Assembly: GCA_963695095.1 (NCBI GenBank)
Contig: CAVOFT010000001.1
Coordinates: forward strand, 3,392,001-3,456,000
Direction: 5' to 3'
Length of the DNA stretch: 64,000 nucleotides
Source of the DNA: an uncultured bacterium
Lineage (GTDB): Bacteria; Krumholzibacteriota; Krumholzibacteriia; JACNKJ01
Part shown: positions 29,629 through 45,117 of the stretch, in pieces
How positions within the stretch are numbered: the first letter of the stretch is position 1
Layout: each line of letters begins with the position of its first letter
Position numbers and translations under genes: made by a program
Notes under the pieces: model-generated
Databases searched by the model: none
What the model was told of the DNA's origin: nothing
What the model saw: the letters and a program-made list of their open reading frames with translations, nothing else

Positions 29629-30654
29629 ATGCAGATGAGCAAGTGGATCCTGGCCCTCGCATTGGCGGCCCTGCTGGCCGCTCCCGCGCTGGCGGACAGC
29701 GGTGAGCGCGCCGCCAAGCGCGCCCAGGCCGGCGAAGTCGTGCACGATCTGAGCTGGCCCTGGCCCTTCGGCAGGGCGGCCACCGACACCGATGGCGATG
29801 GGGTGACCGACGACCTGGATGCCTGCCCCGATACGCCGATGGGCGCCATTGTCGACGCCACCGGCTGCCCCCTGGACAGCGACGGTGACGGCGTCTTCGA
29901 TGGCCTGGACATGTGCGCGAACACCCCCCGCGGCGCCACCGTGGACGCCAAGGGCTGCCCCAGCGACAGCGACGGCGACGGCGTCTTCGACGGCATCGAC
30001 ATGTGCCCGGGCACCGCCAAGGGCGCCAAGGTGGACATGAAGGGCTGCCCCGCCGACAGTGACGGCGACGGCGTCGCCGACGGCATCGACCAGTGCCCCG
30101 ACACGCCCAAGGGCGCCACCGTGGACGCCAAGGGCTGCCCCAGCGACAGCGACGGCGACGGCGTCTTCGACGGCATCGACCTCTGCCCGAACACTCCGGC
30201 CGGCACGAAGGTCGACGCCAAGGGTTGCGCCGTGGACGTTTCCCAGACCGAGACCATCTTCCTGGACACCGGCGTGATCCGCACGGCGGCCATCCTCTTC
30301 GACACCGACAAGGCCACGATCAAGCCCGAGTCCCACAAGGCGCTCACGGAGATCGGCAACATCCTCGTGCAGTGGCCCCAGCTGAAGATCGAGATCGGCG
30401 GCCACACCGACAGCAGCGGCGGCGACGCCCACAACCAGACCCTGTCGGAGGCGCGCGCCAAGTCCGTGCTGGATTACCTGACCACGAACTTCCCCAAGAT
30501 CAGCGCCAGCCAGTACACGACCAAGGGCTATGGCGAGGGCACGCCGGTGGCGGACAACGCCACGGCGGCGGGCCGCAAGGAGAACCGCCGGGTCGAGTTC
30601 ACGGTGCTCAACAAGGACGAGCTGAAGAAGGAAGTCGAGAAGCGCAAGCAGTAG
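29629..30654 (+). CDS. OmpA-family protein with thrombospondin type 3-like Ca-binding repeats
   Basis: Signal peptide; 5x DSDGDGVxDxxDxCPxTPxGAxVDAKGCP; GHTDS...LSEARA...NRRVEF. Confidence 0.9.
   Translation: MQMSKWILALALAALLAAPALADSGERAAKRAQAGEVVHDLSWPWPFGRAATDTDGDGVTDDLDACPDTPMGAIVDATGCPLDSDGDGVFDGLDMCANTPRGATVDAKGCPSDSDGDGVFDGIDMCPGTAKGAKVDMKGCPADSDGDGVADGIDQCPDTPKGATVDAKGCPSDSDGDGVFDGIDLCPNTPAGTKVDAKGCAVDVSQTETIFLDTGVIRTAAILFDTDKATIKPESHKALTEIGNILVQWPQLKIEIGGHTDSSGGDAHNQTLSEARAKSVLDYLTTNFPKISASQYTTKGYGEGTPVADNATAAGRKENRRVEFTVLNKDELKKEVEKRKQ
29785..30234 (+). repeat. Five 90-bp intragenic tandem repeats
   Basis: 30-aa repeat units within the OmpA gene. Confidence 0.85.
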
Positions 30655-34263: not shown

Positions 34264-36405
34264 CTACCGGACGAGCACGAGCTTGCGCAGGGCCAGCGTT
34301 CGTCCCCCCGCGCTCAGGCGCGCCAGGTAGAGGCCCGAGGCCAGGGGCCGGCCGGCGGCGTCCCGGGCCGTCCAGTCGGCGCGCTGCTCGCCCGCTGCCT
34401 GCCGACCCGCCCTCAGTGTTGACTGAAGGCGGCCGCGGATGTCCAGGATTTCCAGCCGCACGATGGCGCTTTCGGCCAGGTGGTAAACCAGGGTCGCGTG
34501 TCCGTTGACCGGATTCGGATAGGCCGCCAGGCCGAACCTGCCCGGCGGCGCGGTCGCTACGGCGGTCAGGCTCCCATCGCCCTCATAGCAGCCCAGGTCG
34601 AGCCGGCCGCCGATCAGGCGCGGGCGGCCGGCGAGATCCAGTAGAGGCAGCGCGAGCCCCGTGGTGTCGGGCGGTCCCGCATCCACGCAGGGCGAACCGG
34701 GCCCCAGCGCCCAGGGATGCTCGCCCTCGCCAAGAACCCAGGGATCGGCGCTGAAGTTGCCCTCGCCGCCGTGGGCGGTCTGGATGTCGTTGTAGCGCAC
34801 GTAGAAGGGCTTCGTGTTGATCAGCGCCGTCGCTTCGAAGTAGTTGAAGCTGTTCGCCCAGACCAGGCAGCCCGTGAGCTGGGGGCGGGCGATCATCGCC
34901 ACCAGCGTCGCGGCGCGATCGACGATCTGGGGATTGTGGTCCACGTTGGCCACCACCGTCGAGGCCACGAGGCGCGGCATCGCCTCCAGGCAATAGAGCG
35001 CGCCCCCCGCCACGAAGGCGTGATTCGCTTCGAGCAGGCAGCCGACCACCTGCGGCTGGGCGTAGTGCGAGCAGTAGAGCGCGCCGCCGTAGTCCGCCGC
35101 GTTCTCGCGCAGGATGCAGTTCTCCACTCGATGATCGCCGCCGCCGGCAAAGCTCAGCGCGCCGCCGGGAGCGCCGGGGCCCAGACCCTTCGCGTGCTCG
35201 ATGACGCAATAGGCAAGCTGCGAGGGGCCCTGATCGGCCGGCGGAAAGGGAAAACGCAGGCCGGCCCAGGCGCCGGCCGTGCTGGAGTCCGGCGCGAAGC
35301 GCCAGGGCTGGGCGCTGTCGAAGTGGATGCGCCGGGCGGGCTCGCCCTGGGCAAGGAGCCGCCCCAGCACCGTGAGCGCGTGGAAGCCCGCGAATTCCAC
35401 GCGCACGCCGGGCATCACGCGCAGGGTGGCGCCCGCGGGCACGAGGACCTCGGCCGTCACGCGCACGGTGTCGGCATCCCAGACCGTCTCGCTCCTCACC
35501 GGAAGCGCTCCGCCCACGCAGACGAGACCCGGGCGCCCTGCGGCCGGCGCCGGATGCGCAGCCGGCGGTACCGGAGCGCCGGGCTGCGGGCCGGGGAAGC
35601 TCAGGCAGCCATAGCCCGCCGCGGGCGAGCCCGGCTGCAGGCGGAAGTCGCCGTGCTCGGGATCGACGAGCAGGGGATCCGTGCCGATGCGATTGTCGTG
35701 GGGCGCTTGCCCGGCAGCCTGCCAGGCGTAAGGCTCGAATCAGCCGTACTCTCACAGAAAGCCGAAATGCAGCAGCGGATCGCCGTTCTCTCGCGGATTG
35801 CTGCGAAAGCTCCAGTTCTCGTGCACCGTGGCGGTCCCCGCCAGGCTGAGCGCGACGTTCAAACCGGTCTGCAGCCACTCCATCGGATAGCCGTTGTCGA
35901 AGACCCAATCGGGGCCGGTCGCCAGCGCGTCGACGATGAGGTTGCGCTCGACGAGCAGCCCGTCACCCGTGCGCTGCAGGCGCAGGGCATAGTCGTGGGG
36001 CCGATAGAAGGTCACCTGCCGCACGGAGCCGCGCGGCTGGCGGTCCACCTCGTAATCGAGGCCCCGATAGCGCAGGGAGCCGCCGATGATCACGCAATCC
36101 TCGACGTCCAGGCGGTTCGGGCAGTAGGAGATGCTGAGCTGGCTGCCGGCCAGGTCCAGCACGGCGCCATTGCCCAGGATCTTCACGTCCAGGCCCGCCT
36201 CGCCGGAGTAGCTCGTGCTCTCGGGGATCAGGATCGGTCCGATCTGCAGGCCGCCCGTGTAAACGACCCCGGGCTCCAGGATGAGCAGCTTGTCGTAGCC
36301 TGCGCCCGGTGACGCGGCGTCGAAGGCGGCGCGCAGGGTGCCGGCGGCGGCAGTGGCGGCCGCGCCCAGGAGGAGGGCAAGGCTGAACGCGAGCAGGCGA
36401 GTCAT
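34264..36405 (-). CDS. Secreted right-handed beta-helix protein with FlgD-Ig-like C-terminal domain; candidate selenoprotein with two in-frame UGA codons (35752-35754, 35740-35742)
   Basis: ATG 36405 with signal peptide; frame continues L*EYG*FEPY...DPLLVDPEHGDFRLQPGSPA...VGGALP into the 34264..35517 ORF; SECIS-like hairpin follows. Confidence 0.7.
35706..35732 (-). promoter_or_regulatory. Candidate bacterial SECIS hairpin
   Basis: CTT-AC-GCCTGGCA-GGC-TGCCGGGC-AAG: 8-bp upper stem (one G-U pair), G-initiated loop 20 nt after the 2nd UGA and 32 nt after the 1st. Confidence 0.6.
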
Positions 36406-39274: not shown

Positions 39275-40780
<1,506 letters not shown>

Positions 40781-40864: not shown

Positions 40865-41248
40865 CTAGTTCAAGCTGTGGGGGGTGGCCAGGGTGAAGAC
40901 GGGAATCGACGCCTCGAACTCGCTGCCGTCGTCCCGCTGCATCAGGTAGCTGCCGCGCATCGAACCCAGCGGGGTCGGCAGCGGGCAGAAGCTGCTGTAG
41001 CTGAAGGACTCGTTCGGCTCCAGCCGCGGCTGCTCGCCGACCACGCCGGCGCCGCGCACTTCCTGCACGCGGCCGGCCGCATCCGTGATGACCCAGTGCC
41101 GAGCGATGAGTCGCGCCGCGGCGTCGCCGCTATTGTGAATGCGGATGCGGTAGGCGAAGAAGTAGTAGCCCTCCTCGGGCGCCGAGCGCTCGGGCAGGTA
41201 GACGCCCTCGGCTTCCACCCGGATGCCGCCATCGTCGCGGACACTCAT
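40865..41248 (-). CDS. apaG: ApaG protein
   Basis: YFFAYRIRI.N, LIARHWVITD, GAGVVGEQP, GSMRGSY. Confidence 0.95.
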   Translation of the reverse strand: MSVRDDGGIRVEAEGVYLPERSAPEEGYYFFAYRIRIHNSGDAAARLIARHWVITDAAGRVQEVRGAGVVGEQPRLEPNESFSYSSFCPLPTPLGSMRGSYLMQRDDGSEFEASIPVFTLATPHSLN

Positions 41249-41453
41249 GCCGACCTCCTCGCTCCTTGGCTCCGCCACGCCCCGGTCCCGGGGGCGCGCC
41301 GATCCGGGCGCGGGCGACCTCGCGGGGGCGCAGGCGCCCCACCGCTTTCTCGCCCTTCCCGATCGGGGCTCGGATTGGAATGCCCCTTGCTGTGCCCCGA
41401 CCGGCGCCGCCAGCGGCGACGCCCAACCGATTCCATCAAACGGAGGATGGTCG

Positions 41454-42122
41454 ATGTCTCCCACTAAGCGCAATGCCGGTTTCACCTTGATCGAGGTCAT
41501 CATCGCCGTGGCCCTGGTCGCCATCATGGCCGTGGCCATCGCGCCGCCGCTGGTCCAGAACATCAAGCAGGGCAAGATCACTCGCGCCCAGAGCGATGTT
41601 CAGGCCATCAGCACCGCGATCCTGAGCTTCTACAAGGACGTCGGCGACTGGCCGACCACCTCGCCCACTGGCGGTGCCCTCAACCGCCTGGTCGGCAACT
41701 ATGCCCTGGGCGGCGGCAACAATGGCATCCCGGCTGGCTCGAATGCGGTCACCGGCGCGGGCCGCTGGCGGAATTATGGCCAGGCAGGCACGCTGACCGA
41801 GTACCTCATTCGCAACCAGGCCGCCGGCAATGCCGAGCTCTACCGCATCAGCCGCAATCCCATGAGCACTCCCGGCTGGAACGGGCCCTACCTCTCGGAG
41901 GTCACCCTGGACCCCTGGGGCAGTCCCTACTGCGTGAACGTCCGCTACGGGCAGGCCGCGCTCTCGGGCACGGCCACCGCGAACTACGACATGCACAATT
42001 TGATCATCGTCTCGGCGGGGCCGAACAAGATCTTCGAAACGGCCTTCGACGACAACGTCTTCGACGAGCAGGCCGGCGGCGACGACATCGCCTACATCAT
42101 CCAGCGCGCCAGCCGCTACTAG
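41454..42122 (+). CDS. Type II secretion major pseudopilin (GspG-like)
   Basis: Class III signal G|FTLIEV, WNGPYL, DPWGSPY, SAGPN, DDI. Confidence 0.85.
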   Translation: MSPTKRNAGFTLIEVIIAVALVAIMAVAIAPPLVQNIKQGKITRAQSDVQAISTAILSFYKDVGDWPTTSPTGGALNRLVGNYALGGGNNGIPAGSNAVTGAGRWRNYGQAGTLTEYLIRNQAAGNAELYRISRNPMSTPGWNGPYLSEVTLDPWGSPYCVNVRYGQAALSGTATANYDMHNLIIVSAGPNKIFETAFDDNVFDEQAGGDDIAYIIQRASRY

Positions 42123-42250
42123 GCAGCAAGCGAGCGACCTCCTCCCTCCGCCCGCCCCGGCGCCTACGCGCCGGGGCTCAGGCGGATCGAGGGCAGCCCG
42201 CTCGCGGCGGTGCCGCCGTCGTCGCGAGCGAACGCAGGCAGGGAGTAGCG

Positions 42251-43927
42251 ATGGAGACCAAGAGCGCGGGTCGCCTCGGCGAAATCCTCCTCGCGGCCGG
42301 CTTGATCAGCCCCGAGCACCTCGAGCTGGCGTTGCGCGAACAGGGGCAGACCGGCGAGAAGCTGGGCGCCATCCTGCAGCGGCTGGGCGTGGTCACCGAG
42401 AAGGAGATCGCGCGCATCCTCGCCAGCCAGGCGGGCGTGCCCCACGTCTCCTTGCGCGAGGAGTGGATCCAGCGCGAGGCCGTGGACCTGATCCCGCCCA
42501 GCTTCGCCGAGCAGGAGCGGGTCTTCCCCATCACCATCCGCGGCAAGACCCTCGTGCTCGCGATGGCGAATCCCCTCGACCTCGAGTGCATCGACGCCGC
42601 CGGCCGGCTGACCGGACACTACATCGAGGTGGTCCATGCCACCGATAGCGACATCCAGGCGACGCTGCAGCAGTACTTCGGCAGCCGCAGCGACATCGAC
42701 GCCCGCATCGACCAGGCCCTGGCCTCGTCGCGGGCGAACCTCGCGGCCGGCGCTCGCGCCGCCGACGGCGACTCCCCCTTCGTGCGCCTGGTCGACCTGC
42801 TGCTGGGCAAGGCGGTCGAGCTGGGCGCCACCGACATCCATGTCGAGCCGGAGGAAAAGGTCATCCGTTGCCGCTACCGCATCGACGGCCGGCTGCGGCA
42901 AGGCCATTCGCTGCCCAAGGAGCTGCAGAGCGTCCTCATCACGCGCTTCAAGATCCTGGCCGGCATGAACATCTCCGAGGCGCGCGTGCCGCAGGACGGG
43001 CGCATCCTCTTCGAGCACGAGGGGCGCAAGATCGACCTGCGCGTGTCCTCCTTCCCCACCGTGCACGGCGAGACCTTCGTCGCCCGCCTGCTCGACAAGC
43101 AGAACCTGCTGGTCGGCATCCAGGGGCTCGGCATGAGCAAGAAGATGCTCCCGGCCTTCACGCGTGATCTGGCGCGGCCCAATGGCATCATCCTGGTAAC
43201 GGGGCCCACGGGCTCCGGCAAGACCACCACGCTCTACTCGGCGATGCAGCACCTCAACGCCCCCGACGTGAAGATGATCACCCTGGAGGACCCGGTCGAG
43301 TACGAGTTGCCCCTGATCAACCAGGGCCAGATCCAGACCGCCCAGGGCTTCACCTTCGCCCGCGGCCTGCGCGCGATCTTGCGCCAGGACCCGGACATCA
43401 TCCTGGTGGGCGAGATCCGCGATCAGGAGACGGCCAGCCTTGCGATTCGCGCGGCGCTGACGGGGCACCTCGTCTTCAGCACCCTGCATACGAATGACGC
43501 GGTGGGCGTCATCCCCCGCCTCGTCGACATGGGGGTGGAGCCCTATCTGCTCTCGGCCACCCTGGTCGCCGTGGTGGCCCAGCGCCTCGTGCGCGGCGTC
43601 TGCCCGGTCTGCCGCGTCAGCATCGAGCCCACGCCCGAGCAGCGCGAGCTGCTGGGCCTGGACGACGCGGCGCTCGCGGATGCCACCTTCACCGCCGGCA
43701 AGGGCTGCCCAAGCTGCAACGATTCCGGCTACAAGGGCCGTCTGGCCGTCTTCGAGTACCTGCAGGCGACCGAGCCGGTGCGCCGCATGATCGCCGAGCG
43801 CGCCCCCACGGACGCCATCGTGGCGGTGGCGCGTGAGCAGGGCATGCGCAGTCTGCGCGAGGACACCCTGGCCAAGGTGCTGCGCGGCAAGACCACGCTC
43901 GTCGAGATGATGCGGGTCGTGGCATGA
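42251..43927 (+). CDS. GspE/PilB secretion ATPase
   Basis: ATDIHVEP, PQDGR, GPTGSGKTTT, LRQDPD, GHLVFSTLH, CxxC...CxxC. Confidence 0.93.
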   Translation: METKSAGRLGEILLAAGLISPEHLELALREQGQTGEKLGAILQRLGVVTEKEIARILASQAGVPHVSLREEWIQREAVDLIPPSFAEQERVFPITIRGKTLVLAMANPLDLECIDAAGRLTGHYIEVVHATDSDIQATLQQYFGSRSDIDARIDQALASSRANLAAGARAADGDSPFVRLVDLLLGKAVELGATDIHVEPEEKVIRCRYRIDGRLRQGHSLPKELQSVLITRFKILAGMNISEARVPQDGRILFEHEGRKIDLRVSSFPTVHGETFVARLLDKQNLLVGIQGLGMSKKMLPAFTRDLARPNGIILVTGPTGSGKTTTLYSAMQHLNAPDVKMITLEDPVEYELPLINQGQIQTAQGFTFARGLRAILRQDPDIILVGEIRDQETASLAIRAALTGHLVFSTLHTNDAVGVIPRLVDMGVEPYLLSATLVAVVAQRLVRGVCPVCRVSIEPTPEQRELLGLDDAALADATFTAGKGCPSCNDSGYKGRLAVFEYLQATEPVRRMIAERAPTDAIVAVAREQGMRSLREDTLAKVLRGKTTLVEMMRVVA

Positions 43928-45117
43928 AGGAGTTCCGCTATCGAGCGCTCAGCGCGAGCGGCGAGACGGTGACGGGCATGCGTCAGGCTGCCAACGTGGC
44001 GGCGCTGGCCCGCGACCTCACTGCCCAGAACATGATCCTGATCGATGGGCGGCCCTCCCTGCGCCTGTTCGGCGGCGGCCGCGTGCGACGCCGCGATCTG
44101 CTCGATTTCACGCTGCACATGGCCACCTCGCTGGGAGCGGGCATCCCCGTCATCCAGGCTCTGCGCGACGCCGAGGCGGGCATGGCCGGCCAGGGTTTCG
44201 CGCGCGTGATCAAGGACCTGCGCGAGGAGATCAGCAGCGGCAGCCAGGTGGCCGAGGCGATGAGCCACCACCCGGACGTGTTCCCCCAGCTCTACCTGGC
44301 CCTCATCTCGGCCGGCGAGAGCTCGGGCAACCTGGACGGCACGCTCGCCGAGCTGGTGCGCTATCTCGAGTGGGCCGACGACCTGGAAGGCAAGGTGAAG
44401 CAGGCCCTGATCTACCCGGCGATCCTGGCCACGGCGACGCTGGGGCTATTCCTGCTCATGATCATCTTCGTTATTCCACGCTTCATGGAGGTCTTCCAGG
44501 AGCTGGACTACCAGCTGCCCACGCTCACCCTGCGCGTGCTGGCCACGGGCGCCTTCTTTCGCCATTGGTGGCCCTTCCTGTTCGGCGGCGTGGCGGCTCT
44601 CGTCACCGGGCTGCGCATGCTCGCCCGCAGCGAGCGCGGCCGCCTGGCGCTGGATCACCTGCTGCTCAATCTGCCCATCGTCGGCGGCTTCCAGCGCAAC
44701 CTGGCGCTGTCTCGCTTCGCGCGCAACTTCGCCATGCTCTTCGCTTCCGGCATCGACATCCTGCGCGTGCTCGCCCTGCTCGAGCGCGTGGTCGGCAACA
44801 GCGTGCTCGCCGCGGAGATCGCCACTGCGCGCCAGCGCGTGGTGACCGGCGACACCCTGTCTCGCGCCTTCGCCGACAGTCCCTACTTTCCGCCCTTGCT
44901 CAAGCGCCTGATCGGGGTCGGCGAGCAAGCCGGCAGCCTGGACAAGACACTGGCCAAGGCCGCCGAGTACCTGGACAAGGAGCTGCCGCGCGCGATCAAG
45001 CGCCTGTTCACCCTGCTCGAGGCGGCGATCATCGTCGTGCTCGGCGCGCTGATCGCGATCAGCGCGCTGGCGATGCTCCTGCCCATCTTCCAGATCCAGG
45101 GGCAGTTGATGAAATGA
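43924..45117 (+). CDS. GspF/PilC inner-membrane platform protein
   Basis: AGESSGNLD, ALIYP, VGEQAGSLD, AMLLPIF. Confidence 0.92.
   Translation: MKEFRYRALSASGETVTGMRQAANVAALARDLTAQNMILIDGRPSLRLFGGGRVRRRDLLDFTLHMATSLGAGIPVIQALRDAEAGMAGQGFARVIKDLREEISSGSQVAEAMSHHPDVFPQLYLALISAGESSGNLDGTLAELVRYLEWADDLEGKVKQALIYPAILATATLGLFLLMIIFVIPRFMEVFQELDYQLPTLTLRVLATGAFFRHWWPFLFGGVAALVTGLRMLARSERGRLALDHLLLNLPIVGGFQRNLALSRFARNFAMLFASGIDILRVLALLERVVGNSVLAAEIATARQRVVTGDTLSRAFADSPYFPPLLKRLIGVGEQAGSLDKTLAKAAEYLDKELPRAIKRLFTLLEAAIIVVLGALIAISALAMLLPIFQIQGQLMK

Follow-up and report, generated by a model that had tools for sequence, protein, structure and literature searches.

A probable exported beta-helix selenoprotein with two in-frame UGA codons and SECIS-type hairpins in an uncultured Krumholzibacteriota bacterium

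Known bacterial selenoproteins are mostly cytoplasmic or periplasmic redox enzymes. According to the main text of a 2026 review of 119 prokaryotic selenoprotein families (PMC13188914), almost all of them contain a single selenocysteine (Sec, U); families with two Sec residues in a UxxU motif are listed there as a Prx-like thiol:disulfide oxidoreductase, the metal-binding protein NF041115 and an FmdB-family protein. Here we analyze a gene with two in-frame TGA codons on the minus strand of a 64,000-nucleotide stretch of DNA (the window; assembly GCA_963695095.1, contig CAVOFT010000001.1, positions 3,392,001 to 3,456,000) from an uncultured bacterium of the phylum Krumholzibacteriota. The original prediction, made from the sequence of the window, had proposed a hidden exported protein with Sec at both TGAs and a hairpin resembling a selenocysteine insertion sequence (SECIS) behind them. 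This proposal now finds support in 90 homologous loci, in the Sec machinery of the genome and in the covariation of the hairpin, and we consider it highly probable that the locus is a single gene for an exported selenoprotein in which both UGAs encode Sec.

One reading frame across two conserved TGA codons

34264..36405, minus strand: whole putative selenoprotein gene, 713 residues plus TAG stop with both TGAs read as Sec
35752..35754, minus strand: UGA no. 1, residue 218; read as Sec here, replaced by a Cys codon in roughly half of the relatives
35740..35742, minus strand: UGA no. 2, residue 222; the family's invariant putative Sec codon, TGA in 90 of 90 readable loci

The minus-strand frame from ATG 36405 to the TAG at 34266-34264 comprises 714 codons, and its sole interruptions are the two TGAs, which translate in the context HFGFL-U-EYG-U-FEPYAW. 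An open reading frame (ORF) listing under genetic code table 11 splits this frame: the upstream ORF stops at the first TGA, and the downstream ORF (34264..35517) can start only at GTG 35517, since the 74 codons between the second TGA and this GTG contain no ATG, GTG or TTG. The peptide DPLLVDPEHGDFRLQPGSPA, which carries a DP..DP..GDFR cap, is encoded after the second TGA and ahead of the downstream ORF. On re-reading, the ORF coordinates, both TGAs, the intervening E-Y-G, the start-free codons, the total length and this cap peptide all proved to be as originally described, and the downstream half indeed lacks a signal peptide of its own.

Sequencing runs covered only small shares of the stretch (≤0.18 of sampled words) and yielded short contigs of low depth. 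Nevertheless, a DNA contig from an independent run (X1; 35528-35771) spans both TGAs and is identical to the window at both, and two further read contigs begin at 35740. Together with the conservation described below, the match of the X1 contig rules out an assembly error at the TGAs, for which a check against raw reads had been suggested.

We assembled 90 homologous loci with a readable motif, down to ~38% identity, of which 36 are genomic and 54 metagenomic. The genomic set consists of six named genome contigs, from Candidatus Eisenbacteria metagenome-assembled genomes (MAGs), and 30 full-length loci (the window's own included) from 208 genomes of the phylum, 53 of which gave any match at E ≤ 1e-20 in a DNA-level search. 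The metagenomic set stems from a contig scan with low-GC family members, which returned 69 loci (motif readable in 54, unreadable in 15) with a GC content from 0.32 to 0.72. Because near-duplicates occur among them (L077/L030, L078/L079 and L053/L096), not every one of the 90 loci counts as independent.

The second codon is TGA in all 90 loci (36/36 genomic, 54/54 metagenomic). The first is TGA in 44 (24 genomic, 20 metagenomic) and a Cys codon, TGT or TGC, in the other 46 (12 and 34, respectively), while Trp, Arg or a variable residue was found at neither position in any DNA locus. A relative from the same genus (76% identity) and one from the same family (58%) both show U..U. The expectation of Cys or TGA at both positions was thus borne out in a stricter form: position 218 has a Cys form in relatives, and position 222 is always TGA, without any verified Cys form. 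In each of the 30 genome loci, a frame of ~700 codons is free of stops besides the one or two motif TGAs; the homologues are single frames and not two genes with separate starts and signal peptides. Among 33 aligned sequences, the residues around and after the TGAs rank among the most conserved, with H213, L217, Y220, P225, W228, A231, P235 and N238 invariant.

To follow the first position through the family, we placed its U/C label on a maximum likelihood tree of 85 N-domain rows in which both motif columns were masked (L051, L100 and L112, missed by the motif pattern, and the short L104 and L113 were left out). By parsimony the label changes 11 times, compared with a mean of 28.6 for shuffled labels, and at least four switches are forced by branches with a Shimodaira-Hasegawa-like approximate likelihood ratio test (SH-aLRT) value ≥95. 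Repeated exchange with Cys, and with Cys alone, is the classical signature of Sec.

TGA otherwise serves as an ordinary stop in the window, as had been stated: it terminates 6 of 17 neighboring ORFs, Pfam-confirmed genes among them. The genome holds the complete set of selA, selB, selC (tRNA-Sec; 71.9 bits, cut-off 47) and selD that the original prediction had proposed to look for, each above its curated cut-off. Across the phylum, selA was detected in 200 of 208 genomes and in all 125 high-quality ones. The selD gene of the window's genome carries an in-frame TGA of its own.

As a separate observation, this selD (G000:C1:69142-70107, locus L009) is itself a selenoprotein, with the motif SAGG-U-SAKMGPEDL.

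SECIS-type hairpins behind the second TGA

35709..35727, minus strand: SECIS-type hairpin, 8-bp stem and GGC triloop, covariation in 16 sequences
35728..35749, minus strand: small upstream hairpin, GGCU/6-nt loop/AGCC extended by GUA/UAC; encloses UGA no. 2; present in the minimum free energy fold

The hairpin with a GGC loop that had been predicted 12 nt after the second TGA is present at 35727-35709, its loop starting at the 21st nt from UGA no. 2 and the 33rd from UGA no. 1. Covariation, named beforehand as a way to check it, was found among 16 sequences of this type (the window and 15 relatives): 85.9% of cells are paired, compared with 22-53% in slid registers, and four of the eight pairs are changed on both sides (e.g. 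pair 33:47, CG in 10, UA in 4 and UG in 1), giving a covariation score of 0.269 versus 0.140 for shuffled sequences. The pairing is maintained even as the amino acids under the hairpin differ (W-Q-A-A-G in the window, W-P-E-A-G in relatives). In close relatives the hairpin reads CUGGCC-GGA-GGCCGG, with a 6-bp stem and GGA triloop like those of the selD SECIS of the window's genome.

A second clade carries its hairpin 8 nt further downstream, as (N)GCCG-GU(U/G)-CGGC(N) with 100% pairing. Its outer pair, formed by two third-codon positions, is GC in 8, UA in 6 and AU in 5 sequences and, over 38 loci, GC in 18, UA in 9, AU in 7 and CG in 4; the conserved loop starts at the 29th nt from UGA no. 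2 and the 41st from UGA no. 1. Low-GC members show a third form with a 6-7-bp stem and an AGUUG loop. Strict criteria assign 62 of 87 loci to one of the first two forms; the remaining 25 mostly show the third form or a variant with one mismatch. Across the family the loop starts between the 19th and the 29th nt past UGA no. 2, and in the two covarying types the apical loop contains G (GGA/GGC/GGG or GUU/GUG). When all 36 sequences were folded jointly with RNAalifold, just four uninformative pairs emerged; the clades were analyzed separately because they use different hairpins.

For comparison, the selD SECIS of the same genome has a 6-bp stem with a GGA triloop, begins 11 nt past its UGA and has its loop at the 18th nt. 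Two genomes of the same family have a selD SECIS of the same design, and three genomes of another large family have selD loops GGG or GGGU at a similar distance.

Further pairing lies closer to the UGAs. The small hairpin enclosing UGA no. 2 also occurs in L031, L032 (8 bp) and L034, and in many genes of the second clade a further hairpin precedes the conserved one, downstream of the UGAs. Many loops of this extra hairpin lack G, CCC and CCA being frequent. A single SECIS serving both UGAs is plausible, since the spacing of the loop seems tolerant within the family and UxxU families with two nearby Sec codons exist. Many U..U relatives, however, carry either two hairpins in tandem or one placed at a greater distance.

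Where the extra hairpin occurs (L038-L058 and many metagenome loci, 1-24 nt past the second TGA), it is built from Pro (CCN) and Trp-Gly/Asp (UGGG) codons.

Fold, export and database records of the family

36343..36405, minus strand: predicted signal peptide, residues ~1-21; basic start, hydrophobic run, AAA|G-type end, from the translation
35596..36345, minus strand: first right-handed beta-helix, residues ~21-270; carries the [U/C]xYxU motif and the DP..DP..GD[FY]R cap
35539..35589, minus strand: Pro/Ala-rich linker predicted to be disordered, residues ~273-289; AlphaFold2 (AF2) predicted local distance difference test (pLDDT) <50, length and sequence vary in homologues
34576..35535, minus strand: second beta-helix, residues ~291-610; AF2, choice-of-anchor Q-type end
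34267..34536, minus strand: C-terminal Ig-like type IX secretion system (T9SS) type A sorting domain, residues ~624-713; TIGR04183, PF13860, Foldseek

The full-length AF2 model, built from 33 homologues, reached a pLDDT of 87.3 and a predicted template modeling score (pTM) of 0.78, with pLDDT <50 at residues 1-19, where the N-termini of homologues are similarly hydrophobic. A further linker joins the second beta-helix to the C-terminal Ig-like domain. Modeled alone, the motif domain is a right-handed parallel beta-helix of pectate-lyase-like fold (pLDDT 94.7, pTM 0.92); the motif, in blocks of pLDDT 93-95, comes directly after its final regular strand. In VIA-align, the top match of this domain was the PL6 alginate lyase 7dmk_A (Z 14.4, root-mean-square deviation 3.0 Å, 187 aligned residues), followed by many pectate-lyase-like proteins and tailspikes (Z 9-12.6) and NosD (7o0y; 11.1). 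These matches reflect a shared common fold and are silent on function. With the full model, Foldseek returned the C-terminal domains of PorU (6za2), PorZ (5m11) and FlgD, and otherwise generic beta-helices, all with low TM.

Pfam and NCBIfam scans of the read-through protein matched its C-terminal parts only and detected no lyase or other catalytic family. The FlgD-Ig/T9SS-like C-terminus proposed for the downstream ORF was recovered above cut-off by both TIGR04183 (T9SS type A sorting; 26.2 bits, cut-off 23) and PF13860 (FlgD_ig; 27.7 bits, cut-off 27), with PF18962 below it (19.6 bits, cut-off 27). Residues 566-608 match NF041518 (28.3 bits, cut-off 25). NCBIfam models of known double-Sec families (UxxU Prx-like, NF041115, FmdB, MbdU and others) gave no match, the hits being limited to the sorting domain and choice-of-anchor Q.

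In a search limited to two T9SS components, the genome was found to encode both SprA (423.7 bits) and PorU (438.4 bits), and it contains dozens of sorting-domain-like matches. These findings make export of the protein by T9SS reasonable, as judged from sequence.

The C-terminal part of the PorU profile also matches ~40 other ORFs in the 3.6-Mb genome, suggesting a large T9SS cargo repertoire.

Existing protein records of the family are fragmentary. A word-indexed protein search matched only fragments that begin directly after the second TGA. A profile of the motif domain, run against 1.84 billion representative sequences, matched 166 proteins at E ≤ 0.001, of which 69 reached ≤1e-10 and 29 reached ≤1e-30; among the 150 matches listed, at least 23 end exactly at profile positions 200-207, which correspond to the motif, and ~33 start just behind it. 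Such breaks are what gene callers that stop or start at a TGA would produce. Another search, for shorter proteins, gave 59 matches, nearly all of 195-267 aa and named "hypothetical protein" wherever named, with organism labels that include a Candidatus Delongbacteria MAG and a Planctomycetota MAG. All current database records of the family are cut at the TGA into unnamed fragments, apart from six proteins that read through the motif.

Among these six, P0008 and P0028 show W..W, P0019 and P0027 show C..W, P0006 shows C..C, and the distant P0074 shows CCESC. The W residues in P0008, P0019, P0027 and P0028 are most simply explained by a metagenome pipeline that translated TGA under table 4, and P0074 may be a true Cys form. 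A tblastn search of the six proteins against the metagenome loci found no relative above 55% identity. In P0019, P0027, P0028 and P0074 (319-376 aa, from low-GC organisms), the motif beta-helix is fused directly to a T9SS sorting domain; as four of the six through-reading proteins hold just these two domains, the first beta-helix appears to be the core of the family.

The surroundings of the gene offer no conserved partners beyond the two closest relatives, where synteny holds. Elsewhere in the window, two OmpA-family proteins with thrombospondin type 3 repeats are encoded at 29629-30651 (+) and 39275-40777 (+), the latter also with an N-terminal outer-membrane beta-barrel. A cluster resembling type II secretion and type IV pilus systems lies at 41223-45114 (+) and comprises a pseudopilin with an N-methylation motif, a T2SSE ATPase with MshEN and a T2SSF platform protein.

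Competing explanations and relation to known systems

We infer the following course for the product. Translation would start at ATG 36405, SelB and tRNA-Sec would decode UGAs 218 and 222 as Sec under the direction of one or more mRNA hairpins just 3' of them, and synthesis would continue to TAG 34264. The signal peptide would then take the protein across the inner membrane, and the sorting domain and T9SS would deliver it to or onto the cell surface. The mature protein would consist of two right-handed beta-helices joined by a flexible linker, the first being the conserved family core. Its second Sec would be obligatory and its first position filled by Sec or Cys interchangeably, in a motif [U/C]-x-Y-[G/S]-U after an invariant His. 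The pair might act as a redox-active selenenylsulfide or diselenide, or as a chalcogen metal(loid) site, at the end of a binding groove of the beta-helix, and would work on a substrate outside the cell where oxygen is absent or low.

Several observations count against this reading or lend it no support. An RNA-library contig identical to the window over 35605-35745 is no proof of transcription; neither this single contig nor the uncovered parts of the stretch are evidence on expression or habitat. The 63-nt hairpin region folds at -23.2 kcal/mol (z -1.34), a stability reached by 20 of 200 shuffled sequences and thus ordinary for DNA of this high GC content; the case for more than chance comes from the double or single TGA at the same two columns in 90 loci, not from energy alone. 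An Rfam scan at permissive thresholds yielded no relevant match for it. The loop is also distant from UGA no. 1, at the 33rd nt in the window and the 41st in the second clade, compared with the 18th in selD. The extra upstream hairpin is commoner in U..U loci (21 of 41) than in C..U loci (9 of 44), a difference that comes down to just four phylogenetically independent pairs (p ~1). P0006, with C..C, may be a true Cys form or a case of U displayed as C. Foldseek found no PDB match of the motif domain at E ≤ 0.001 (generic beta-helix matches, E > 0.03), and no functional clue comes from the gene neighbors, which are unrelated genes for housekeeping or envelope functions (a short-chain dehydrogenase/reductase, EamA, DUF3078 and a membrane protein).

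The distance to the first UGA is also an argument for UGA no. 2 being the only true Sec codon. In lineages with TGA in place of Cys at the first position, such as this one, UGA no. 1 would then be poorly decoded, subject to near-cognate read-through or a regulated terminator at which most ribosomes release an N-terminal product of 217 residues. The fact that a second SECIS-like loop with G is not consistently present, many upstream loops being CCC or CCA, points the same way. However, TGA at the first position persists in nearly half of the loci across deep divergence and alternates with Cys alone, and a terminator there would leave the product without the invariant second Sec and without the cap, second domain and export signal. 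Moreover, the spread of loop starts within the family suggests that spacing is tolerated, and two nearby Sec codons have precedents in the UxxU families of the review's main text (PMC13188914). We regard a single Sec codon as improbable. Still less credible, to the point of being almost negligible, is a broken or split gene, a pseudogene, or a reassignment of TGA to Trp or Gly. In its favor are the two ORFs that table-11 gene callers report and the W residues in four of the database proteins. Against it, the 74 start-free codons encode a strongly conserved stretch of protein, and a signal peptide is missing from the downstream half. All 90 loci share the same arrangement, in none of them does the first position encode Trp or Gly, and Pfam-confirmed genes nearby end in TGA.

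With two Sec residues favored, the role of the motif can be read in two ways. It may be a site that ligates a metal or metalloid, or a structural Se-Se or Se-S staple resistant to reduction, in a surface binder or adhesin of anoxic habitats and not in an enzyme, a possibility that we take seriously but rate below even. His213 and Tyr220, beside both chalcogens, are invariant in the 33 sequences, and the second domain matches, weakly and below cut-off, the polymorphic membrane protein repeats of Chlamydia (Chlam_PMP/POMP; PF02415, TIGR01376), which belong to surface adhesins. Neither Pfam and NCBIfam nor Foldseek matched the protein to a catalytic family, and metal binding is given in the main text of the review for several double-Sec or CU-type families (PMC13188914). 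On the other side, Cys replaces Sec222 in none of the 90 loci. In selenoenzymes, an obligatory Sec points more often to catalysis than to a structural staple. The polar residues R112, R142, E153/R154/N155, D159 and D166, invariant in the 33 sequences, would run along the helix as in active-site grooves. A more tentative proposal, which we consider rather unlikely as a whole, is a selenium-obligate surface enzyme of anaerobic sediment bacteria, in which His...[U/C]-x-Tyr-x-U would form a new catalytic or metal center and SelB would decode two UGAs 12 nt apart with the help of one SECIS or of tandem, clade-shifted elements.

Under any of the double-Sec readings, the signature H-x4-[U/C]-x-Y-[G/S]-U on an exported beta-helix defines the family, and the gene in the window is its founding example. 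The claim that no described family has this architecture agrees with the absence of matches in NCBIfam and Pfam and among the 119 families as covered in the main text of the review, which contains none of the terms UxxxU, CxxxU, "helix" and T9SS (PMC13188914); the same terms are absent from the deep-Sep paper (PMC12013277). A literature search for selenoproteins in Eisenbacteria found nothing, and one combining selenoprotein or selenocysteine with beta-helix, T9SS or sorting domain gave nothing relevant among the matches listed. The family, spread over uncultured lineages with GC contents of 0.32-0.72, would carry one obligatory Sec, and often a second, on a beta-helix that is secreted or anchored to the surface. 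It is a natural test case for how the rules of bacterial SECIS spacing handle two UGAs 12 nt apart, and for how a SECIS moves within a coding sequence, with three hairpin solutions over one conserved peptide. The motif and the N-domain profile can be used in selenoprotein annotation pipelines.

Compared with the closest described systems, the hairpin of the window resembles the selD SECIS of its own genome in its G+C-rich stem of 6-8 bp, its G-G-N triloop and its start 11-13 nt past a UGA. In contrast to selD, the element stands behind the second of two UGAs, and other clades use a GUU/GUG-loop hairpin 8 nt downstream or, in low-GC members, an AGUUG loop. The motif domain shares its fold with the C-terminal domain of the PL6 alginate lyase BcAlyPL6 (7dmk), but sequence identity across the pectate-lyase-like matches is only 7-19%, and no pectate-lyase-like protein is listed as a selenoprotein in the main text of the review (PMC13188914). 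With the UxxU families described there, the gene has in common two UGAs a few codons apart, Sec/Cys interchange at one position and a presumed redox or metal chemistry. It differs from them in its UxxxU spacing, in its right-handed beta-helix in place of a thioredoxin-like or small metal-binding fold, and in being a T9SS cargo of ~700 residues. In summary, the evidence points to a new family of selenoproteins, known in kind but unusual in its double Sec, its UxxxU spacing, its obligatory Sec, its nature as a T9SS cargo and its clade-shifted SECIS.

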